From NCBI GenBank assembly GCA_000002435.2, contig CM018792.1: a stretch of DNA of 64,000 nucleotides, one strand, 5' to 3'. This DNA is from Giardia intestinalis (Eukaryota). The notes beneath the pieces were generated by a model, which was not told the DNA's origin, did not search any database, and saw only the letters and a list, made by a program, of their open reading frames with translations. A program made the position numbers and the translations under genes. Positions 51,351-63,423 of the stretch are shown here, piece after piece (the first letter of the stretch is position 1; the number at the start of each line of letters is the position of its first letter).

Positions 51351-51357
51351 ATTTACT
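51351..51357 (-). promoter_or_regulatory. Putative Giardia polyadenylation signal AGTAAAT (AGTRAAY) downstream of the VSP stop
   Basis: Reverse complement of atttact, about 20 nt past the TAG of the 51378..53189 ORF. AGTRAAY is the established Giardia poly(A) signal. Confidence 0.4.
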
Positions 51358-51377
51358 ACCTAAGTACGCAGCTAAGT

Positions 51378-53189
51378 CTACGCCTTCCCCCTGCAGAGGA
51401 ACCACCAGCAGAGGAAGCCCACGAGGCCCCCCACGACGACGACCACAGCGACGGAGATCCCCGCGATGGCGCCTGTGCTGAGGCCGCTCCTGTTGGCGCC
51501 AGAGGACACACACTTACCACCCTCCAGACTGTACCCATCACTGCACTCCCCACACACATCATCCATCACACAGCTCTTGCAATCACCCACAGAGCATGTC
51601 ACACACCCACTGCCGTCCTTGTTGGGCTTCCTATCACTGTCACAGGAGGTACACACAGCGGGGGTCATGCCAGCATCAGATGGAGCTGTTGGGGCTGTAC
51701 ACTGTGAACAGCCATCCACCCCCACGTATGCCTTCTGACCAGCCAGCTCGACACCAAGGGGGTTCCCACAGGAGAGGACAGACTGCTTGTCCTTGGTGGG
51801 CGAGGGAGGGATGAAGTACCCAGCTGCCGCCTCTGTGCAGACACCATCACCTGCCTTTGTGCACATGGACTTACCCGGCTGAGCTGATATACTATAACAA
51901 CCACCCATGTATAGGAAGTATCCCATAGTACATGATGTGCAGACATTATTGACACATCCTGTATTGCCTTTAGCCTCACTAGCACAGAGACCATCAATAG
52001 GGAACTCACTGTCCTTTCCACAGTAAGAACAGTAGTGAAGCTCCTTCCCTGTGTTGTCGATTACTATTGCATCACAGGCTCCAGATGTCCCACCACAGGC
52101 CGTGGGGTCTTCACACACCTTTGTACACGTGACCCCAGTTGAAGGTTCTCCACTGGGTCTGTAGTTCACCTTGCATTTTGTGCACTTAAATGTGCCACTA
52201 TTTGTGCACTCGGCACACCCCTCGATGCCACCTTTGGTTGTGTCACTACATGAGATGCACTCACCAGAGGAGCTATCCTTCAAGAAGTACCCTTGCTTAC
52301 ATGTCAGGCACTTACTCGGATCTTCCTTCTTGGAGCATGTCGCACAGCCTGGAGCGCACGGATCGCACGCAAAACCCCCACCGTTAGTATTCTCGATGTA
52401 TCCCTCCAGGCATTTTGAACAGGTTGGCGGATTTCCTGCCGTCTTCTCACATATGCTGCACCCGGCAATGCCCTTATCATTTACGCCAGCATCAGGGGAC
52501 GCATCGCCGCAAAGAGCACACGTTTTGTCCTCCTTCATAAATAAGGCCCCGTCAGCGCCCTTGCACCCGTCAAGCGTTTTATCGACGCAGGTCGATGTCC
52601 CGTCGAGGGCCGTCCTGGGGGTCTTATTGGTCCCGCAGTTAGTGCACTTCGGCTTCCCCGTGGTCTTGTCGAAGGAGCATGCCGTGCAATCTGCGTGTAT
52701 CTCACTGCATGCTTTGCAGGTCATTGTTAGCTCGTCTGCATACTGATTGTTCTCACACGTATTAGAGCATGAGTTATCTGACTTCAGATAGGTCCCCGGC
52801 TTGCATGTCTCACAGTTGGTCGCACCGGCCCCGGTACATGTGGCACAGTTCTGATTGCATGGCTTGCAAAGCTTATCGCTCAGGAAGTATCCATCTTGGC
52901 AGGTACTACATGTAGCTGCTCCTGCACTCTGTGGTGCCTGACACTGTGCGCAGTTATCCACTCCCATGACCCCGTCTCTCTGTGTAGTATCAGAGCAGAG
53001 GATGCACTCGTTGCCAGGGGCTACTGGGCTGGCCGGGTTCTGGAATAGATACGCGGCGCCTGCCTTGCAGGTGGTGCACACTCCCTTGTCGGCCGCCGTG
53101 CATATCTCGTTGCCAGGATCTTGTCCTACCTTGTAGCACCCGCCCATGAAGAGGAGTCCCACACCATCACTATCACCCCCACACCACAC
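51378..53189 (-). CDS. Variant-specific surface protein (VSP) family ORF, apparently 5'-truncated (no signal peptide/ATG), possible pseudogene
   Basis: CXXC-rich throughout, two GGCY motifs, and the C-terminal TM plus invariant tail GGLVGFLCWWFLCRGKA. The frame opens with GTG only 41 bp past the upstream VSP stop. The first in-frame ATG (53157, MGGCYKV) has no signal peptide. Confidence 0.55.
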   Translation of the reverse strand: MWCGGDSDGVGLLFMGGCYKVGQDPGNEICTAADKGVCTTCKAGAAYLFQNPASPVAPGNECILCSDTTQRDGVMGVDNCAQCQAPQSAGAATCSTCQDGYFLSDKLCKPCNQNCATCTGAGATNCETCKPGTYLKSDNSCSNTCENNQYADELTMTCKACSEIHADCTACSFDKTTGKPKCTNCGTNKTPRTALDGTSTCVDKTLDGCKGADGALFMKEDKTCALCGDASPDAGVNDKGIAGCSICEKTAGNPPTCSKCLEGYIENTNGGGFACDPCAPGCATCSKKEDPSKCLTCKQGYFLKDSSSGECISCSDTTKGGIEGCAECTNSGTFKCTKCKVNYRPSGEPSTGVTCTKVCEDPTACGGTSGACDAIVIDNTGKELHYCSYCGKDSEFPIDGLCASEAKGNTGCVNNVCTSCTMGYFLYMGGCYSISAQPGKSMCTKAGDGVCTEAAAGYFIPPSPTKDKQSVLSCGNPLGVELAGQKAYVGVDGCSQCTAPTAPSDAGMTPAVCTSCDSDRKPNKDGSGCVTCSVGDCKSCVMDDVCGECSDGYSLEGGKCVSSGANRSGLSTGAIAGISVAVVVVVGGLVGFLCWWFLCRGKA

Positions 53190-53216
53190 ATAGCACTATC
53201 ACTATCACTGTACAGC

Positions 53217-53223
53217 ATTCACT
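53217..53223 (-). promoter_or_regulatory. Putative polyadenylation signal AGTGAAT (AGTRAAY) of the upstream VSP, lying inside the head of the truncated VSP ORF
   Basis: Reverse complement of attcact, 8-14 nt downstream of the TAG of the 53231.. VSP. Confidence 0.4.
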
Positions 53224-53230
53224 ACCTAAG

Positions 53231-56200
53231 TCACGCCTTCCCTCTACAGATGAACCACCAGCAGAGGAACCCTACGAGGCCCCCCACGACGACGACCACA
53301 GCCACGGAGATCCCCGCGATGGCACCTGTGCTGAGGCCGCTCTTGTTGACGCTTCCGCCGGTGTTGTCGCCGTCTGTTTTGATATAGCAGGTGACAGGAC
53401 CGCCATTGCCACCAGCTGGCGGGGCGCAGCTTACGCAATTAGCGACACCAGTGATTTGGTTGTTATTTCCACTACTAGCTGTACATTTGAAGCATTTATC
53501 ACCGGCACCTTTGTAGTATCCAGGAAGGCATTCAGTGCAGGCATTAGAATCATTGCATTTTGCACAGCCTTCAGAGCACTCCGGACACTTCTCTTGCACA
53601 GGTGCCTGGTTATTTGCAGCACACATAGTGCACTTTCCGTTACTAGCGAGCGTGCAAACCGATTTGCCAGGAAGCTTAGCCACACCATAGCACCCGCCCG
53701 ACATGAGAGTATACTCTCCTGCACATTTGGTGCACTTGCCATCTGCCGCCGTGCATACGCTCGCGTCTCTCCCGGCAGCTGCCACCGTTGTACAAATTCC
53801 GTCGATCGGGGCGTACCCGTCCTTGCACTGAGCACAGTACTTCGCGCCCCCCACGTTAGCCGTGCACTGCCCGTCTGCACAGTTGGTAATGAACGCACCA
53901 GTGCACTCCTTGACGCATGTTCCGGCTGTGCCAGATCCATACAGGAGAGAATACCCGGGATAGCAGGCCGTGCAGGAAGCAGCGTTTGCATCGCCGTTGC
54001 ATTCTGCACACGTAGCATGGCAGGAAGCACAGACACTGACTCCGTTAATATTATCGGCATATGTTCCAGCAGGACAGTTGTCCAAGCATGCATTGCCCGA
54101 AGGAGTAAGCCGCTTGTCTGTACACTCGGAGCACACAACCGTCGATTCTGCTTCTCCAGAGAGCGTTTTGAGGGCACACTTTTTGCAGCCTGTGATGCCG
54201 TGGGTTGCGTCGCTGCATGAGAGGCACATCCCCTTCGAGTCACCGGCCTTCTCTCTAGTGAAGTGCGTCTTATCGGAGGTGCACTCTTCGGCAGTAAGGC
54301 ACGCTCCCGATTGCCCAGCTGCAGACTCTGGCTTTAGATACCGTCCCTCTTTACAGCCAGTGCACTTGTCGGCCTGGTTCGTCATGGCGTTCTCGGTGCA
54401 TCCGTCGCAGCTGGAGTGGCACCCCGGCGTGGCGGCGGGGCATTTCCCGTTCTCTGGTGGTGCGCCGGTACTGCATCTAGCGCAGACATCATTCTGATCG
54501 CATCGTTCACAGTTAGCATCTGAGCAAGAGAAGCACTGCGTACCTGCAGTATTAGGCTTTTGGCCTTCTGCACACTTCTTGCACTCCTTTGCGTCGGAAA
54601 CGCTGTCGTCGGTGTAGTAGCCCGCGCTCCCCTGGCAGTCGACCGCGCTGACGCACGTCCCCGTCGGGTCGCTGGGATTCGTCTTCTTCAGGTAGGGCGC
54701 GGCGCCGTTTGCGTCGCATTTGGTGCACTTATCGGCCGTTCCAGCACACGCCGTGCAAGGGGCGTTGCACTTCTTGCACTCCTTTGCGTCGGAAACGCTG
54801 TCGTCGGTGTAGTAGCCCGCGCTCCCCTGGCAGTCGACCGCGCTGACGCACGTCCCCGTCGGGTCGCTGGGATTCGTCTTCTTCAGGTAGGGCGCGGCGC
54901 CGTTTGCGTCGCATTTGGTGCACTTATCGGCCGTTCCAGCACACGCCGTGCAAGGGGCGTTGCACTTCTTGCACTCCTTTGCGTCGGAAACGCTGTCGTC
55001 GGTGTAGTAGCCCGCGCTCCCCTGGCAGTCGACCGCGCTGACGCACGTCCCCGTCGGGTCGCTGGGATTCGTCTTCTTCAGGTAGGGCGCGGCGCCGTTT
55101 GCGTCGCATTTGGTGCACTTATCGGCCGTTCCAGCACACGCCGTGCAAGGGGCGTTGCACTTCTTGCACTCCTTTGCGTCGGAAACGCTGTCGTCGGTGT
55201 AGTAGCCCGCGCTCCCCTGGCAGTCGACCGCGCTGACGCACGTCCCCGTCGGGTCGCTGGGATTCGTCTTCTTCAGGTAGGGCGCGGCGCCGTTTGCGTC
55301 GCATTTGGTGCACTTATCGGCCGTTCCAGCACACGCCGTGCAAGGGGCGTTGCACTTCTTGCACTCCTTTGCGTCGGAAACGCTGTCGTCGGTGTAGTAG
55401 CCCGCGCTCCCCTGGCAGTCGACCGCGCTGACGCACGTCCCCGTCGGGTCGCTGGGATTCGTCTTCTTCAGGTAGGGCGCGGCGCCGTTTGCGTCGCATT
55501 TGGTGCACTTATCGGCCGTTCCAGCACACGCCGTGCAAGGGGCGTTGCACTTCTTGCACTCCTTTGCGTCGGAAACGCTGTCGTCGGTGTAGTAGCCCGC
55601 GCTCCCCTGGCAGTCGACCGCGCTGACGCACGTCCCCGTCGGGTCGCTGGGATTCGTCTTCTTCAGGTAGGGCGCGGCGCCGTTTGCGTCGCATTTGGTG
55701 CACTTATCGGCCGTTCCAGCACACGCCGTGCAAGGGGCGTTGCACTTCTTGCACTCCTTTGCGTCGGAAACGCTGTCGTCGGTGTAGTAGCCCGCGCTCC
55801 CCTGGCAGTCGACCGCGCTGACGCACGTCCCCGTCGGGTCGCTGGGATTCGTCTTCTTCAGGTAGGGCGCGGCGCCGTTTGCGTCGCATTTGGTGCACTT
55901 ATCGGCCGTTCCAGCACACGCCGTGCAAGGGGCGTTGCACTTCTTGCACTCCTTTGCGTCGGAAACGCTGTCGTCGGTGTAGTAGCCCGCGCTCCCCTGG
56001 CAGTCGACCGCGCTGACGCACGTCCCCGTCGGGTCGCTGGGATTCGTCTTCTTCAGGTAGGGCGCGGCGCCGTTTGCGTCGCATTTGGTGCACTTATCGG
56101 CCGTTCCAGCACACGCCGTGCAAGGGGCGTTGCACTTCTTGCACTCCTTTGCGTCGGAAACGCTGTCGTCGGTGTAGTAGCCCGCGCTCCCCTGGCAGTC

Positions 56201-56842
56201 GACCGCGCTGACGCACGTCCCCGTCGGGTCGCTGGGATTCGTCTTCTTCAGGTAGGGCGCGGCGCCGTTTGCGTCGCATTTGGTGCACTTATCGGCCGTT
56301 CCAGCACACGCCGTGCAAGGGGCGTTGCACTTCTTGCACTCCTTTGCGTCGGAAACGCTGTCGTCGGTGTAGTAGCCCGCGCTCCCCTGGCAGTCGACCG
56401 CGCTGACGCACGTCCCCGTCGGGTCGCTGGGATTCGTCTTCTTCAGGTAGGGCGCGGCGCCGTTTGCGTCGCATTTGGTGCACTTATCGGCCGTTCCAGC
56501 ACACGCCGTGCAAGGGGCGTTGCACTTCTTGCACTCCTTTGCGTCGGAAACGCTGTCGTCGGTGTAGTAGCCCGCGCTCCCCTGGCAGTCGACCGCGCTG
56601 ACGCACGTCCCCGTCGGGTCGCTGGGATTCGTCTTCTTCAGGTAGGGCGTGTTGCCGTTTGCGTCGCATTTGGTGCATTTTTTCCCAGTTGAATCGCATT
56701 CAGCGCAACCATCGATCGATGGACTGCATGCATCAGCCAGTGCGACTGCAAAAATCAAACCAATTCCTACCAACATTGAGGCCAGAAGCTGGCACAGCAC
56801 CGCTCTGGTTTGCATTAAGAGGCGCACGGGATCCTGCTTCAT
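53231..56842 (-). CDS. Variant-specific surface protein (VSP) containing ~11 tandem 65-aa repeats
   Basis: Signal-like N-terminus (..MQTRAVLCQLLASMLVGIGLIFAVALADA), CXXC-rich ectodomain, GGCYG motif, and C-terminal TM plus CRGKA tail. The ORF-track start is TTG; plausible ATG starts are 56890, 56842 (MKQDP) or 56815 (MQTRAV), and the exact start is uncertain. Internal 65-aa repeat unit KCDANGAAPYLKKTNPSDPTGTCVSAVDCQGSAGYYTDDSVSDAKECKKCNAPCTACAGTADKCT. Confidence 0.8.
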   Translation of the reverse strand: MKQDPVRLLMQTRAVLCQLLASMLVGIGLIFAVALADACSPSIDGCAECDSTGKKCTKCDANGNTPYLKKTNPSDPTGTCVSAVDCQGSAGYYTDDSVSDAKECKKCNAPCTACAGTADKCTKCDANGAAPYLKKTNPSDPTGTCVSAVDCQGSAGYYTDDSVSDAKECKKCNAPCTACAGTADKCTKCDANGAAPYLKKTNPSDPTGTCVSAVDCQGSAGYYTDDSVSDAKECKKCNAPCTACAGTADKCTKCDANGAAPYLKKTNPSDPTGTCVSAVDCQGSAGYYTDDSVSDAKECKKCNAPCTACAGTADKCTKCDANGAAPYLKKTNPSDPTGTCVSAVDCQGSAGYYTDDSVSDAKECKKCNAPCTACAGTADKCTKCDANGAAPYLKKTNPSDPTGTCVSAVDCQGSAGYYTDDSVSDAKECKKCNAPCTACAGTADKCTKCDANGAAPYLKKTNPSDPTGTCVSAVDCQGSAGYYTDDSVSDAKECKKCNAPCTACAGTADKCTKCDANGAAPYLKKTNPSDPTGTCVSAVDCQGSAGYYTDDSVSDAKECKKCNAPCTACAGTADKCTKCDANGAAPYLKKTNPSDPTGTCVSAVDCQGSAGYYTDDSVSDAKECKKCNAPCTACAGTADKCTKCDANGAAPYLKKTNPSDPTGTCVSAVDCQGSAGYYTDDSVSDAKECKKCNAPCTACAGTADKCTKCDANGAAPYLKKTNPSDPTGTCVSAVDCQGSAGYYTDDSVSDAKECKKCAEGQKPNTAGTQCFSCSDANCERCDQNDVCARCSTGAPPENGKCPAATPGCHSSCDGCTENAMTNQADKCTGCKEGRYLKPESAAGQSGACLTAEECTSDKTHFTREKAGDSKGMCLSCSDATHGITGCKKCALKTLSGEAESTVVCSECTDKRLTPSGNACLDNCPAGTYADNINGVSVCASCHATCAECNGDANAASCTACYPGYSLLYGSGTAGTCVKECTGAFITNCADGQCTANVGGAKYCAQCKDGYAPIDGICTTVAAAGRDASVCTAADGKCTKCAGEYTLMSGGCYGVAKLPGKSVCTLASNGKCTMCAANNQAPVQEKCPECSEGCAKCNDSNACTECLPGYYKGAGDKCFKCTASSGNNNQITGVANCVSCAPPAGGNGGPVTCYIKTDGDNTGGSVNKSGLSTGAIAGISVAVVVVVGGLVGFLCWWFICRGKA
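54571..56692. repeat. Tandem array of ~11 copies of a 195-bp unit (10 copies identical at nucleotide level, terminal copies slightly divergent)
   Basis: Exact 195-bp periodicity is visible directly. For example, gttgcacttcttgcactcctttgcgtcggaaacgctgtcg recurs at 54741, 54936, 55131 and so on. Ten identical 64-aa minus-strand sub-ORFs at 195-bp steps in the ORF track confirm this. Confidence 0.95.
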
Positions 56843-59800
56843 GTCACGGAATTCAATGGAACACAGCGGCCAACGGAAGCGAGGGCACATCCTCAAGCTA
56901 CACCGGAGACCCGTTAATGCAGCATCCGCCCTCAACAAGCACGACTGAGGAAGCCCAGCGCTGGCTTTCCTTGCTCTGAGAAGGCATAAGTGTATACATA
57001 GATAATGAGTGCATCCATTGCTACATTAACCCAGCTGGCGCTTGTAGCCCTTGACATCCGTAGCCACCGTGTCCTGTAATCTGTCTGATTGCCTGAGTGA
57101 CCATCGTGGGGGACACAGCGATCGTGATGCTCATGGAGTGGCATGGGGCCGGCTCTAGGATCACGCCGCCATCCGGGCAGACGCGCACCACAGAAAGCCT
57201 CTTGTTGCCACCGTCCGAGGCTCACAGGATTGCAGGGCTCAGGGAGCCTCTGTCCCATCAGCGAGACTGGCCTCGCCCGACGCCTCCAGCACTCTGCCAA
57301 TAGCTGGCGGACAAGCGTGCACAATAGCTTTGGACGGAGGGTACAAGGGACAGCAAAACAAGACAGTCAAGTAGGCGTTGACGGTACAAACACTGCCAGC
57401 CCTCAGTCAGAGAGCAGGCATCTGGGAAAGGTGAGGGTTGCTTGTTACTCTACACCTTAACGGCCAGGCTCAACAGTAGTCACTGTTTGAGAGCTCCATT
57501 TGAAAGCACTGTAGATGAGACTCTCTGCCTTCCTGGATGTTGATCCCAAGAATGTGCTGCCTGATTGTTTGTCTCTGCATCGGAGTCGTTGCTAACGGCC
57601 GTCCTGGTGCAGCAAGGGGCCCATACAAGAACCATGTGCCGGGCACTACTCAAGAACAGAACAGATATCGTTGCTACTCATAGGCTTAGACCGATTTTCC
57701 GAAGCGACAGATGTCAAGGGCAAGGACGGGGCCTGTTTCCGAGTCCCTAATTCGAGAGTTTGTGTGAGGACCACAGCACTCTGTTAGACCTTCCTGGAAG
57801 AGGACATCCACACATATCCTTGACTCCAATCCACGTCAAAGAACGCCCAGCGGCTGCCATAGCAGTTGGGCAATGCCATCACTCCTTGCTCAGAGCTACC
57901 CATCGTTGGTGATAAGCAGCTAGCGACAGGGAAAAGCTTCTTTAGACTTCTGATTGCGCCTCAACGTTTTCAAGTCCCCCCTATCGTTTTGCTGAGCCCA
58001 TGTTTCGCTGGTCTGGTGTGCTTGTATCCGTTCCAAAGCATGCTTGAAGTGGCGGCCAAGTGCTAGGCTTCATGTAGTTACCTCAGGCCACAGTGCTCGT
58101 GCGCAATAAGCAGAGTCTCCGGTCCACTGGCCACTGCTCTTGCTGCTCGTAAGCCTGCTCAGTGAGTGGCTATGGCAGGATCCTCCGCAAATGCGTATCT
58201 TTTGATACTTATTTCCATGTGCACAGAGGCAGGTGCACTGTAACTAGTCAAGGCGCCTGCTGCTCAGCCTCCTCGCCGTGGGGGTCTACTGCATACCCCT
58301 TCAGCAGATATTGATTAATGTGCCAGATACAACTACATCCTCAGACTGTCAACTGTGCATGTAGAAGTTTCAGGCCATCCTCTAGCACTGTTCCAATGCC
58401 GCAGAATCTGGATGGGACATCCCGACTACAAGCGCAGCGCAAGGCTAGCGCATTATGTCCGGCACTCTCTTACATTGCAGTTGGCTCCGGCGGCTATTGC
58501 CCTGGACTTACGTTTGGAGATAGGATGATCTGTACCCATCAGTGTGGATGAGCCATTGTCAACCATCGCAGAGACGCTCAGAGTCAACGTAGGCCACACA
58601 TTGATAAGCCGTAATGGATTGCTGGGCAGTCGTAGTACCCGGCAGCGCGCCTTATGGAGCTGTGGCAAGTGAATACGCTGACTTCCGATTCGCCTATCCA
58701 TTAGGGTCCAGACACTTCAAATGGATATGCAGTATATGCTAGCCACGGTTCAGACTGCCAGCTGCATGGATCCTGTGACTGGCCATTAGACATCTTTACT
58801 GTGGTTGTAACACAGTGAAGTGGTACTATATACGCTTGCTGGCGATCATCCGCTATGCACAAATGTACCCGTCGGAGGCCAGTGTATCGGTCACTTTCTG
58901 CTGCGAAGGGAATGCTTAGCCGCTAGCACAGCCGATTCTCTACACCCTACTGATGGCTGTTTTGCGTATATCAGGCTTGGTATCCGCAAGCGAAGTATCC
59001 AGTTAGCAACAGACCAGGGTTATGTTCATCGGAGCAGATGATCAAGCACCAGAGCTGGATTGTCAAGTCCCAGAAGGTGCCACCTCTTCTGGAACGCCCC
59101 TACAAAAACAAGAACCCGACAGCGGAGTTGTGAGGAACTCGAAGTAAGGTCGATCAGGGCACTCTCCTGGGTTCGATGCCATGTTGATTCTAAGGTCTCA
59201 GATGATACAGGAACGCAAAGAATGGCCTCCGCAGCACGCCAAGATTGTGTCATGGAAAGAGCTTCGAAGACTACTGCTCGCTTCATGGACTCTCTTACGA
59301 GTATCCTATGCATCTCTAATAAGGATGAGACGTCCAGCTTAGCATGGATTCCACTACGGTGTCTAAGACAGAATCTGCAAGGGGGTCACTCATCACTATC
59401 TTTCTAATGTATCACTCACTGAAGACCGAGTTCCTATCATAAAGGGCCGAGGAAGAATGACAATAGAATCCATGCAATAGCGCCTGCATAGTTCATTCAG
59501 GGATGAAATTCCAACCTTGGGCCATTTGCCTTTTGACGCTCTCTGTGGATCCCTGAGGAACCTGTGAAGAGGGATGCATTACATAGAAATGATGCTAAGT
59601 AAGCTCGTGGTAACAATTCAATGAAGGCGCCCAAGACAACAAAAAGCGCACCCTCGTCAGCCAGGCAGATCGAGATCACTCCGCAGCCGAAACAACGACT
59701 GTGTGGGGATTCACGTGGGGATTGGAGGCGTGTGCTCGCTAGTACAACATCACGCTCTAACTGGTTGATGCTTCTGAAGCGGGGAAGGAGCACTCTTGGA

Positions 59801-59920
59801 AGACCGTAGTGTCAGAGGTGCAGTACTACAGGCCATAGGTGAGAGTCCCAGCAACACAGCATTTAAAGTATCGATAAGCGATGGAAATATCAGCTTTTAA
59901 AAAGGGAGTATAGATTCAAT

Positions 59921-60298
59921 ATGGGGGACAATAGGCTATCTGTGGAGAATACGTACCAGTTAGGACCAGAAGAGCCCCTCACGCGCTTGGCTATCAGGCC
60001 TCTGGTTCAGAAGGCTCTACAGAAGCAGTTTTTGAATTGGACATATGACGCTAAAACTGGGGCATCCAAGAGCCGCGACACTTGCGCAATGATACAGAAT
60101 TACATAAATGATAGTGCAGTTGTTCCGCCTCGCTACAAGGTTATGGTTCAAGTATTTATTGTACCTCTCAAAGGGCAATGCGTCCGGCTTGCTACGCGTT
60201 CCGTCTGGGAACCGTCCACAGACAATTTGGTCAGCGAAACGTTCACTGGCCGTGATTACGCTGCAACTGCCCTTGTTTTTTACACATATAATGAGTGA
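59921..60298 (+). CDS. Tctex1-family dynein light chain (DYNLT-like)
   Basis: C-terminal half KYKVMVQVFIVPLKGQCVRLATRSVWEPSTDNLVSETFTGRDYAATALVFYTY matches the Tctex1 fold consensus (YK..v.v.i.q..g.g....s.c.WD...D......). ATG preceded by cagcttttaaaaagggagtatagattcaat. Confidence 0.55.
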   Translation: MGDNRLSVENTYQLGPEEPLTRLAIRPLVQKALQKQFLNWTYDAKTGASKSRDTCAMIQNYINDSAVVPPRYKVMVQVFIVPLKGQCVRLATRSVWEPSTDNLVSETFTGRDYAATALVFYTYNE

Positions 60299-62172: not shown

Positions 62173-63423
62173 CTACTCGGTGAGAGTACGGACGGTGTCG
62201 GCAGCCTCTATCACTGAGAGCCGCCGCCCGGTAGCCATGCTCATTATATTGCTGTCTATTTCATTCTTCAAAGCCGGTGCTCTAGGATGACTTTTAGATA
62301 CAGAGCTAAAGGCAGGGCTAGTAGGGCTGGAATAAAGCACATGGCTGTTGAAGCTAACGCGACGTAATCCACGTGCACTATCGCCAATGCTTGTTGCTTT
62401 CTCTCTGCTTATGTCGAGGGCGAGCTCATTGAGGGTAGTTTCGGCAAAGTTAACAAAAGAGCTGCGCTGGTCCACTTGTAGTTCATCCTTCTGTACCTCT
62501 GTCGTTCGCTTCATCTGTTCATATGCTGGATATGCTCTCTCAGATTGCGAAGTAAGCTCGTCTAGTTGCTCTTGTTTGCGTTTTAATGCACTCTCGAGAA
62601 GCGCTACTTTGCCTTCTAACTCACGGATCTTATCGGTTCTGATTTCTAACTGCGCAGCCTGGAGATTCTTTAACTGACTAAATGACTTCTTTGCATCTTC
62701 GAGAAGAACTCTTCGCTCGGTCTTTTCCGTTTCCAGCTGTGCTCTAAGTGTAATGATTTCTGCCCTGAGGCGCTCATTTTCCACATGTAGTTCCTGGTTT
62801 TCGCGACTGCTCTGTCTAGCCTCTTCCGGAGTGCTCTTGTTAGCATTCAACAACAGTACAATTGTATAGAGAGATCTATTGAGACGATTTAAGCATAGAC
62901 ATTCGGTGTCTTCGTCTATATATGAGGGAAGAGTGGAGATAAGACGGCCTTCGTCAGCGTGGTTATGACCTGTATTTGAAAATATGTTAATGTAATTCTC
63001 AAGGGCGTTGACAAGAAGCTCTTCGTTAGTCTGGTATTGGGTGACCATCCTCTTTAGTTTTGCAGTCTCCGATATTAAATTATTTTTCACCCTCTCGCTT
63101 AATTGCAGAGCCTTTTCAACGCTAGCACACTTTGTTTGCTGACCTACATACTCCGTTGTTACTCGCGCTAAGTCGGCCTCTAGTTGATGTAATGAGTCCT
63201 GGAGTGCGCGAATTTTCGTCTGATCCTCCAGTGCTTTATCGTGAGACATCAGCGCCACAGATGTTTGAGACTTTAGGTATAGAGTTTCGTTCTGCTGGAT
63301 CTTCGCCTCTAGCTTAATAACTCGGTCGATCAATGTCCTGTTTTCCTGTTCGAGGGCAGAAACGAGCACATTCTGCATGTCGTTCGTTTTTTCCTCAAAG
63401 AGTAATAAATAGCAGATTGACAT
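62173..63423 (-). CDS. Coiled-coil hypothetical protein (416 aa)
   Basis: ATG start. Heptad-rich E/L/K/Q sequence. No enzymatic motifs. Confidence 0.4.
   Translation of the reverse strand: MSICYLLLFEEKTNDMQNVLVSALEQENRTLIDRVIKLEAKIQQNETLYLKSQTSVALMSHDKALEDQTKIRALQDSLHQLEADLARVTTEYVGQQTKCASVEKALQLSERVKNNLISETAKLKRMVTQYQTNEELLVNALENYINIFSNTGHNHADEGRLISTLPSYIDEDTECLCLNRLNRSLYTIVLLLNANKSTPEEARQSSRENQELHVENERLRAEIITLRAQLETEKTERRVLLEDAKKSFSQLKNLQAAQLEIRTDKIRELEGKVALLESALKRKQEQLDELTSQSERAYPAYEQMKRTTEVQKDELQVDQRSSFVNFAETTLNELALDISREKATSIGDSARGLRRVSFNSHVLYSSPTSPAFSSVSKSHPRAPALKNEIDSNIMSMATGRRLSVIEAADTVRTLTE

Follow-up and report, generated by a model that had tools for sequence, protein, structure and literature searches.

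A two-gene vsp linear array in Giardia lamblia WB: a head-less pseudo-VSP behind vspA6 as a putative silent recombination cassette

Two VSP-family open frames lie head-to-tail on the minus strand of the 64-kb window, the whole stretch of Giardia lamblia (assemblage A1, WB) DNA analysed here. The question raised by this locus is whether it holds two surface-antigen genes or one such gene followed by a copy that is not made as an antigen. With a probability of about 70%, we read the locus as a linear array of two vsp genes, in which vspA6 is followed by a ψVSP, ORF2, that would act as a silent recombination cassette. ORF2 belongs to the class of pseudo-VSPs that have a complete frame with a CRGKA end and lack a signal peptide; the Rodriguez-Walker 2022 preprint likewise defines its pVSP class as an ORF without a signal peptide. 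The coordinates of the array are collected in Table 1.

Table 1 Positions of the features of the vspA6–ORF2 array within the 64-kb window
Feature	Position	Strand	Basis
vspA6/CRP170-type VSP, intact, first array member	53231..56776	-	ORF and translation; 1181 aa from ATG 56776
VSP initiator CAATGTT (PyAatgTT) of vspA6	56772..56778	-	Pattern scan and sequence
195-bp tandem repeats of vspA6 (10.8 copies, 99% matches, 65-aa repeats)	54573..56677	-	Tandem Repeats Finder
Stop codon TGA of vspA6	53231-53233	-	Sequence
Extended PAS of vspA6, ACTTAGGTAGTGAAT (first A is the last base of TGA)	53217..53231	-	Sequence and pattern match
Array spacer, 41 nt	53190..53230	-	Sequence; contains PAS, out-of-frame ATG and GTGATAG-type short repeats
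ORF2, head-less ψVSP open frame	51378..53195	-	ORF; GTG 53187-53189, first ATG 53145-53147, stop TAG 51378-51380
Start of collinear homology to full-length VSPs, GVGLLFMGGCYK (residues ~83-99 of intact relatives)	53130..53183	-	tblastn
Candidate gene-conversion tract, 157 nt identical to the paralogous ψVSP on contig L006	51850..52006	-	Sliding-window DNA identity
C-terminal 38 aa of ORF2, NRSGLSTGAIAGISVAVVVVVGGLVGFLCWWFLCRGKA (TM anchor and CRGKA)	51381..51494	-	Translation, alignment to vspA6
3' UTR of ORF2	51351..51377	-	Sequence, alignments, pattern match

The upstream member shows the 5' features typical of an array head, namely an Inr, a signal peptide and an extended upstream non-coding region. 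Its translation carries the signal peptide MLVGIGLIFAVALA, a TM segment and CRGKA, and matches the Pfam VSP family (PF03302) with E=3.8e-63. The start region reads gcctCAATGTTgg, and a minus-strand pattern scan across the VSP region returned a single YAATGTT, that of vspA6 at 56772-56778; this PyAatgTT element was defined as the VSP Inr by Adam 2010 (PMC2996952; BMC Genomics 11:424). Upstream of the gene, ~3.1 kb without a substantial ORF extend to a Tctex-1 gene at 59921-60298. The 195-bp repeat and the 99 bp that precede it match vspA6 as described in Adam 2010 (PMC2996952). The table of that study lists vsp67 as A6, on chromosome 4 and first in a linear array, with a 195-bp repeat and CAATGTT; the row of vsp66 is adjacent, but the table flags vsp68 (593 aa) instead of vsp66 as the gene that shares the array with vsp67.

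Behind this gene, ORF2 encodes 603 aa when read from its GTG (51378..53189) and 589 aa from its first ATG. The distance of 41 nt (53190-53230) between the stop of vspA6 and the GTG is that given by a first reading, made from the letters alone (the sequence-only reading); 83 nt lie between that stop and the ATG. The frame itself is already open from 53195, its limit being set by an in-frame TAG in the spacer at 53196-53198. From the ATG, ORF2 is 100% identical to XP_001707733.1, a VSP of G. lamblia ATCC 50803 (our P0001). The 589-aa form contains 71 Cys and 26 CXXC, and the row of vsp66/GL50803_14297 in Additional file 1 of Adam 2010 gives the same length, Cys and CXXC counts. ORF2, the former XP_001707733.1, is thus probably vsp66/GL50803_14297, which it matches by size, composition and neighbouring number. 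The head-less WB proteins that we retrieved are all known from the old annotation only (source eukprot), and the intact WB VSPs are also present in current NCBI/UniRef. In the contig collection, exact-sequence look-ups of ORF2 (ATG form), vspA6 and P0008, an intact relative, gave no match, and a literature search returned no mention of GL50803_14297 nor of AF236020, AF236019 and AF230275. A metagenome scan with CTTAGGTAGTGAATGCT found seven loci; none of the seven had a CRGKA-ending frame and most were AT-rich, so we set them aside as chance matches.

ORF2 retains much of what makes a VSP. It matches PF03302 with E=1.4e-40 (139.8 bits; cut-off 31.4). Its 605 codons contain no internal stop, although shuffles lead one to expect ~27 and the two remaining frames have 16 and 49. 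The protein ends in GAIAGISVAVVVVVGGLVGFLCWWFLCRGKA, a hydrophobic TM segment followed by CRGKA, the usual VSP tail. This tail was correctly described in the sequence-only reading as complete, and so was its near-identity to that of vspA6 over the last ~120 nt: the aligned 3' ends share 109 of 120 nt, a likeness that is not pair-specific, as the ~117-nt 3' end is conserved family-wide in vsp genes (Adam 2010, PMC2996952). Each gene is followed by the 17-mer CTTAGGTAGTRAATGCT, which has no other occurrence in the 64 kb (0.01 expected by chance).

The head, by comparison with full-length VSPs, is missing. The first ATG (53147) encodes MGGCYKV, and over the first 30 aa the Kyte-Doolittle mean of 10-residue windows peaks at 0.88 for the ATG form and 1.74 for the GTG form, compared with 2.2-3.0 for vspA6 and seven intact paralogues. 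Neither N-terminus, MWCGGDSDGVGLLFMGGCY (GTG form) or MGGCYKVGQD, contains the hydrophobic core of a 14-17 aa signal peptide, as had been proposed from the absence of a leader after the GTG and the first ATG. The minus-strand pattern scan of the region found no PyAATGTT at the ORF2 start, where the ATG stands in the context cttcATGGGC. The first GGCY lies at residue 95 in intact relatives vs residue 2-27 in head-less ones, and ORF2 lacks ~90 N-terminal residues, corresponding to the signal peptide and the first Cys-rich module. Since ORF2 begins just before this first GGCY, it is left without these residues, without the initiator element and without upstream promoter space. A tblastn search of the window with the N-terminal 100 aa of nine intact VSPs recovered only internal modules of vspA6 and ORF2. 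The sequence-only reading had named a restored leader as what would overturn it; here, neither an intron nor a frameshift nor an exon in the vicinity brings back a signal peptide, and the frame-corrected ATG gives MLYSDSDSAMWCGG, which is not a leader.

What separates the two genes is derived from a VSP 3' end. The extended PAS of vspA6 resembles the published consensus ACUUAGRUAGURAAYRY (Rodriguez-Walker 2022 preprint), and its AGTGAAT, which had been placed inside the first codons of ORF2, in fact occupies 53217-53223, which is 28 nt before the GTG and on the far side of the TAG bounding the frame. In the frame of vspA6, three stops (TGA, TAG, TGA) come after the CDS. An ATG at 53216-53218 overlaps the vspA6 poly(A) signal (AGTGAATG). 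In the window its reading frame is shifted by 2 nt from that of the VSP body, and the ORF that it opens has only 30 codons; the equivalent ATG opens the annotated ORF of three head-less paralogues (P0004, P0015 and P0019), which reads MLYSDSDS..AMWCGGDS..LFMGGCY. At the other end, ORF2 is followed by a 12-nt degenerate partial copy, ACTTAGCTGCGT, at 51366-51377 and then by an extended PAS, ACTTAGGTAGTAAAT, at 51351-51365. A match to the extended PAS pattern ACTTAGRTAGTRAAYRY, namely ACTTAGGTAGTAAATGC, starts 13 nt past the ORF2 stop, at 51365, and the AGTAAAT that had been assigned to ORF2 as its own signal is present at 51351-51357, within CTTAGGTAGTAAATGCT. Neither a GTGATAG spacer nor a further VSP was found 3' of ORF2, so the array ends there. 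Its 3' flank resembles that of a solitary VSP on contig L005. Two solitary, non-array genes, P0048 (P15, on L007) and P0009 (on L005), served as examples of non-array 3' flanks only.

The spacer and the truncation are not private to this locus. The spacer head TGACTYAGGTAGTGAATGCTNTAYARTG(T)GTGATA is found at the junction in the window and at five junctions on the independent contigs L006, L017 and L018. The N-terminal breakpoint of ORF2 is common to P0002, P0003, P0004, P0012, P0015 and P0019, and head-less paralogues start with MGGCY (P0002), MGLLFIGGCY (P0003) or MLYSDSDS..LFMGGCY (P0004, P0015 and P0019). Truncation and spacer being common to paralogues and independent contigs, the head-less state would have been inherited with the array unit rather than made locally. 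Judged from these junctions, the unit arrived with its array spacer (VSP 3' UTR plus GTGATAG-type repeats) and apparently not by deletion at this locus. ORF2 as a 5'-deleted tandem duplicate of vspA6 was rejected, with 33% identity to the non-repeat part of vspA6 outside the TM tail. The proposal of a 5'-deleted copy arranged head-to-tail thus holds in that ORF2 is a head-less copy behind an intact VSP, and does not hold as a local deletion, given this low identity and the shared breakpoint and spacer.

The body of ORF2 is a mosaic. In 40-aa windows it is 87-100% identical to one after another of five paralogues, among them the intact VSP P0008 (87-90% over aa 181-240), against a background of 40-60%. 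At the DNA level, the 157-nt identical tract sits in a ~300-nt block of 88-100% identity with flanks of ~55%, while ORF2 and the L006 copy are 68.7% identical overall. Such a patchwork, near-identical now to one paralogue and now to another, suggests segmental gene conversion; as far as sequence comparison goes, it shows that ORF2 and other copies have exchanged sequence, in one direction or the other (ψVSP to VSP or the reverse). The pattern is consistent with the sequence-donor idea of the sequence-only reading, which is a published hypothesis for such copies. A bolder extension is that the array spacer, with its extended PAS and GTGATAG/GTG-rich repeats, might be a specialised joint, prone to recombination, at which VSP bodies are captured through microhomologies and arrays of head-less cassettes are so built up, with cassettes of the ORF2 type selected to stay open for periodic copying of their segments into Inr-bearing VSPs such as relatives of vspA6; we regard this as quite improbable. 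An example of microhomology is the GATA of GAGATATGCAC, at the breakpoint in L017/L018.

How else might a long open frame without a head be explained? It could be an inert relic, left over from a vsp gene that was discarded and now lacking any role, with a frame that is open through recent origin or passive homogenisation, an alternative to the reservoir idea already offered in Adam 2010 (PMC2996952). The missing promoter, Inr and signal peptide fit such a relic, as do the spacer ATG that has drifted out of frame and the degenerate duplication in the 3' UTR. A relic is nevertheless unlikely, as the lack of stops noted above, compared with shuffles and with the other frames, is hard to reconcile with it, and the long near-identical tracts in several copies, an intact VSP among them, suggest that ORF2 is still exchanging sequence. 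The open frame might instead belong to a functional, atypical VSP, translated from the ATG at 53147 (or the GTG at 53189) on a read-through or cryptic mRNA and reaching the surface without a classical signal peptide. ORF, TM segment, CRGKA tail and PAS are all intact in ORF2, the first WB genome annotated it as a VSP protein, and VSP constructs without the N domain localised to the membrane in Li et al. 2013 (PMC3656445), where N-terminally truncated constructs still reach the membrane; the Rodriguez-Walker 2022 preprint disputes that truncation experiment. Such a protein is very unlikely, however, for a frame without a signal peptide and without the Inr that is present in 135 of 136 real VSPs (Rodriguez-Walker 2022 preprint), with just 41 nt of 3'-UTR-derived sequence upstream of it. 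ORF2 also lacks the GYY...VxCY "motif 1" needed for localisation according to Li et al. 2013 (PMC3656445), and genes of this kind are ψVSPs in current annotations. In the portion of the PMC7332775 proteomics supplements that was covered, GL50803_14297 was not among the matches listed, "14297" occurring only as digits in intensity values.

The tight head-to-tail position behind an expressed gene would also suit a source of regulatory RNA, in which vspA6 read-through or antisense transcription across ORF2 yields dsRNA or small RNAs that silence other VSPs by homology. For many VSPs, antisense reads outnumber sense reads in strand-specific RNA-seq (Rodriguez-Walker 2022 preprint), and tracts common to many paralogues would allow cross-targeting. 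Against this, a canonical extended PAS stands between vspA6 and ORF2, the ψVSPs of G. muris are essentially non-transcribed (Xu 2020, Microb Genom 6:mgen000402) and no feature seen here needs the idea, which makes it highly improbable. An assembly or sequencing artefact, with a frameshift, collapsed repeat or mis-join masking a normal N-terminus, has some grounds in that VSP regions are difficult to assemble, the vspA6 repeat number is 10.8 here vs ~23-25 published, a slippage-prone TG run lies within the spacer, and the short-read contigs found via the neighbour gene at 62173-63423 stop at ~59.1 kb, ~2.3 kb upstream of vspA6. Yet the 41 nt between vspA6 and ORF2 leave no room for a head, there is no head-like sequence elsewhere in the window, and correcting the frame, as noted, still does not yield a signal peptide. 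The head-less architecture is repeated in many paralogues and in independent assemblies, other assemblies being where the sequence-only reading had suggested looking for an intact N-terminus, and the old RefSeq protein XP_001707733.1 starts at the same ATG as ORF2. An artefact is extremely improbable.

We therefore return to ORF2 as a silent cassette behind vspA6. Transcripts of vspA6 would be cleaved and polyadenylated at ACTTAGGTAGTGAAT, ahead of ORF2. ORF2, with no start site of its own, would not be made as a surface antigen; its transcriptional silence is probable from the missing signals and by analogy with similar copies. The frame may be kept open by swapping tracts with other VSP and ψVSP copies via segmental gene conversion, and we propose that such exchange would thus make ORF2 a silent cassette in the pool that reshuffles vsp diversity. 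Antigenic switching in Giardia involves no DNA rearrangement (Adam 2010, PMC2996952), so any reservoir role, here putative, would act over evolutionary time and not as a switch mechanism. A stop-free frame of 603 codons is unusual for a dead gene and speaks against a silent cassette, as it could mean selection on the protein.

This architecture has been published. Adam 2010 (PMC2996952) described linear arrays of vsp genes with a mean spacing of 60 bp (range ~0-241 bp), found the Inr in no downstream array member and proposed these members as unexpressed cassettes for recombination. Xu 2020 (Sci Data 7:38) annotated 208 ψVSPs, without signal peptides and often in arrays. In the G. lamblia arrays, as at vspA6-ORF2, genes stand in head-to-tail order, tens of bp apart; an Inr, a signal peptide and an extensive non-coding stretch upstream characterise the first member, and the downstream member lacks Inr and signal peptide and has CXXC, a TM segment, CRGKA and an extended PAS. 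The Clade-I type body and evidence of recombination among copies are likewise shared with ORF2. We see no essential difference, and vspA6-ORF2 is an instance of the class. The present analysis adds to the published description a spacer sequence (PAS plus GTGATAG-type repeats) common to several junctions, a breakpoint that recurs ahead of the first GGCY and, at this locus, a spacer ATG offset by 2 nt from the frame.

The telomere-adjacent ψVSP arrays of G. muris also consist of signal-peptide-less copies that are reported to be silent and to undergo recombination or gene conversion with intact VSPs; Xu 2020 (mgen000402) found them essentially non-transcribed, with signs of gene conversion. They comprise 5-23 genes next to telomeres, whereas vspA6-ORF2 has two genes, ordinary flanking genes in the 64-kb window and an expressed VSP at its head. 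A donor or reservoir role for such copies has been put forward by Adam 2010 (PMC2996952), Xu 2020 (mgen000402) and the Rodriguez-Walker 2022 preprint. The VSG pseudogene arrays of T. brucei offer a functional analogy only, the proteins being unrelated: they store many incomplete surface-antigen genes as a silent archive able to donate segments to functional genes, but T. brucei switches by gene conversion into an expression site and Giardia VSPs switch without DNA rearrangement.

The head-less ψVSP behind vspA6 is thus a real but ordinary observation, and the locus is to be annotated as a single surface-antigen gene, vspA6, with one ψVSP behind it. This instance holds no new principle; its shared spacer and recurrent breakpoint could aid in cataloguing array junctions or in testing how arrays grow, and the wider interest of ψVSP arrays is that they may be an archive from which the surface coat of Giardia is diversified.

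vspA6 (CRP170), the intact VSP gene directly upstream of the head-less frame ORF2, begins at an ATG that sits within CAATGTT, the VSP initiator PyAatgTT (Inr), and this is the biologically sensible start of the frame. A leader (MLVGIGLIFAVALA), 99 bp of unique sequence, the 195-bp repeats and ~1.3 kb of non-repetitive VSP sequence with a TM segment and CRGKA at its end follow in turn, as published for vspA6/CRP170 (Adam 2010, PMC2996952). Both vspA6 and ORF2 matched the Pfam VSP family (PF03302) well over threshold.

Features of vspA6 and ORF2, and the high-identity partners of ORF2 segments
Feature	Position	Strand	Detail
vspA6 frame	ATG 56776 to TGA 53231-53233	minus	ORF and translation
195-bp repeat	54573-56677	minus	10.8 copies, inside vspA6
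ORF2	open from 53195; stop TAG 51378-51380	minus	GTG 53189; first ATG 53147 (MGGCYKV...)
Partner P0008 (intact WB VSP)	~aa 181-240 of ORF2
Partner P0020	aa 261-360 of ORF2
Partner P0003	aa 381-460 of ORF2
Partner P0002	aa 441-540 of ORF2
Partner P0006	aa 521-560 of ORF2

The repeat number seen here (1181-aa protein) compares with ~23-25 copies in the literature, and GL50803_221693 is listed with 2259 aa. Copy-number variation between vspA6 alleles has been reported, and the lower number reflects either a shorter allele or collapse of the repeat in the assembly. The 195-bp repeat also produces reading frames that are not genes: a 710-aa ORF on the opposite (plus) strand (54560-56692) and, in another minus-strand frame (54729-56699), a series of identical 64-aa ORFs. 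The vspA6 protein (53234-56776) also gave a whole-protein match to the Pfam CLIP domain PF12032 (E=4e-12) with no single significant stretch, most likely the sum of weak matches to its repeated Cys pattern rather than a real domain. On its 5' side, vspA6 is separated from the Tctex-1 gene (59921-60298) by some 3.1 kb (~56780-59920) without any substantial ORF. The flanking genes are covered by four short-read (Logan) contigs (L001-L004), which all end before the VSPs, the longest near ~59.1 kb; this suggests that the sequence 5' of vspA6 is repeated or hard to assemble.

ORF2 ends in ...LCWWFLCRGKA and TAG, and the near identity of the 3'-terminal ~120 nt of vspA6 and ORF2 noted in the sequence-only reading was borne out (109/120 identical). 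The 17-mer CTTAGGTAGTRAATGCT lies 3' of both genes and nowhere else in the 64-kb window (chance expectation 0.01). The distance from the vspA6 stop to the GTG of ORF2 is exactly 41 nt, as had been stated. The AGTGAAT of vspA6, said to lie inside the first codons of ORF2, is in fact upstream of them (53217-53223), since the frame opens only after a TAG at 53196-53198; this placement was the one incorrect point in that observation. In the 3' UTR of ORF2, the real ACTTAGGTAGTAAAT is immediately preceded by ACTTAGCTGCGT (51366-51377), 12 nt that repeat the beginning of the extended polyadenylation signal (PAS) in partial and degenerate form.

From its ATG, ORF2 shows 100% identity along all 589 aa to XP_001707733.1, "VSP [Giardia lamblia ATCC 50803]", which places the window in G. 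lamblia WB or a nearly identical strain of A1. This length, the 71 Cys and the 26 CXXC are the values of vsp66/GL50803_14297, listed as Clade I, chromosome 4, "no Inr" (Adam 2010, PMC2996952, Additional file 1). The adjoining entry, vsp67 (A6), reads "first in linear array, 195-bp repeat, CAATGTT" (Adam 2010, PMC2996952). The same table gives vsp68 (593 aa, GL50803_15123) as the array partner of vsp67 and leaves vsp66 unflagged, whereas the ORF directly behind vspA6 in the window has 589 aa; either the label is wrong or the assemblies differ. The protein search returned Giardia VSPs throughout, save for a few VSP-like entries under other names. Three VSP-family proteins from Giardia draft assemblies (P0079, P0089, P0112) carry the NCBI names "Dynein light chain", "NAD synthase" and "Queuine tRNA-ribosyltransferase", apparently through annotation-transfer errors. 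Four head-less WB proteins looked up singly (P0001, P0002, P0004, P0015) occur in the old annotation only, unlike intact WB VSPs, which are present in current NCBI/UniRef; this fits reclassification as pseudogenes.

In the intact relatives (P0005-P0008, P0016, P0023, P0045) the N-terminus is a hydrophobic leader and the first GGCY lies at residue 95, whereas it falls at residues 2-27 in ORF2 and a whole set of paralogues. When residues 1-100 from nine intact VSPs were compared with the window by tblastn, collinear similarity was confined to residues ~83-99, at 53183-53130; no VSP head was found elsewhere, the other matches being paralogous internal modules of both VSPs. The possible N-termini of ORF2 lack a hydrophobic core (maximum 10-residue Kyte-Doolittle values of 0.88 and 1.74, vs 2.2-3.0 in intact VSPs), confirming that it has no hydrophobic leader. 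A pattern scan of the minus strand in the VSP region found no PyAATGTT besides that of vspA6. Behind the vspA6 stop lie two further in-frame stops and then an ATG (53216-53218) overlapping AGTGAATG. This spacer ATG is in frame in P0004, P0015 and P0019 (MLYSDSDS..AMWCGGDS..LFMGGCY); in the window its frame is shifted by 2 nt relative to the VSP body and it opens a 30-codon ORF only, an offset consistent with a difference in TG-run length. Correcting the frame yields no signal peptide either. With no head by tblastn, no room for a leader exon in 41 nt, no hydrophobic core and no PyAATGTT, neither an intron nor a frameshift restores an upstream ATG with a signal peptide, and the head-less reading therefore stands.

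The sequence-only reading took ORF2 for a 5'-deleted copy arranged head-to-tail. A head-less body does lie behind an intact VSP; no local deletion is involved, as the same junction follows each CRGKA stop on three independent contigs with ORF2 relatives (L006, L017, L018). It reads TGACTYAGGTAGTGAATGCT-NTAYARTG-(T)GTGATA..., with a variable number of GTGATAG-like units before the head-less body. L006 and the window share the body start ...CTCTTCAT(G/A)GG(C/A)GG(G/A)TGCTAC, coding LLFMGGCY or LLFIGGCY, and in L017 and L018 the body begins ~10 codons later, at ICTAAS; another L006 unit retains the last 70 codons only. Flanks after ORF2, at the array end, and after a solitary VSP (L005) carry AGTAAAY without GTGATAG units. 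It follows that the head-less state is a property of a repeated array unit made up of spacer and truncated body, and that it did not arise at the ORF2 locus. Another array type, possibly from assemblage B, has a ~520-bp spacer (TGACTCTCTAGTGAATGTCCGCTCTGTC...; L015 378-900 and 2148-2670, L016 68-590) that keeps its first 150 nt unchanged from one junction to the next; its translation explains the odd N-termini of P0070, P0071, P0110 and P0115.

ORF2 was also considered as a copy of its neighbour and rejected, with 33% identity to non-repeat vspA6 outside the TM tail. Scanned in 40-residue windows against its 12 best relatives, ORF2 showed 40-60% identity along most of its length, and successive windows reached 87-100% with changing partners. 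At the DNA level it is 68.7% identical overall to the L006 gene, with a 157-nt exact run (51850-52006) inside a ~300-nt block of 88-100% identity. Such a mosaic is the hallmark of gene conversion or recombination acting on segments. The ORF2 frame has 0 stops in 605 codons (16 and 49 in the other two frames, ~27 in shuffles), and segmental exchange offers an explanation for a frame that is open without expression signals.

More than half of the vsp genes of WB belong to "linear arrays", 60 bp apart on average, in which the leading gene frequently carries the Inr and has a long upstream region; downstream members never have the Inr, and they were proposed to be probably unexpressed and perhaps recombination cassettes or discarded remains (Adam 2010, PMC2996952). 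A later annotation counted 208 ψVSPs without signal peptides, many of them arranged in arrays (Xu 2020, Sci Data 7:38). A class with a "complete ORF ... ending in CRGKA, but no SP" has been defined, the extended PAS ACUUAGRUAGURAAYRY marks VSPs and pVSPs alike, and the Inr is present in 135/136 true VSPs (Rodriguez-Walker 2022 preprint). The ψVSP arrays of G. muris are reported to have essentially no transcription and to show signs of gene conversion with VSPs (Xu 2020, G. muris paper).

The best-supported reading makes ORF2 a silent ψVSP cassette located behind vspA6, its silence and reservoir role being what we infer. The vspA6 mRNA would end at its own PAS, ahead of ORF2. A rival reading has ORF2 as a putative source of read-through or antisense RNA. 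Having neither initiator nor leader, ORF2 would be silent. An atypical expressed VSP could draw on the claim that the N domain is dispensable for localisation (Li et al. 2013, PMC3656445); however, ORF2 lacks the motif 1 required according to the same study, and the claim itself is contested (Rodriguez-Walker 2022 preprint). ORF2 might instead be an inert relic; as a cassette, it would persist as an open mosaic via sequence exchange with other copies. That the missing head is an assembly artefact is unlikely, because the architecture is recurrent.

The arrangement of vspA6 and ORF2 is a kind of feature already documented and annotated. To this our analysis makes small additions only: an explicit spacer consensus, a recurrent breakpoint before the first GGCY, a frame-shifted spacer ATG at the ORF2 locus and tract-level evidence of exchange.
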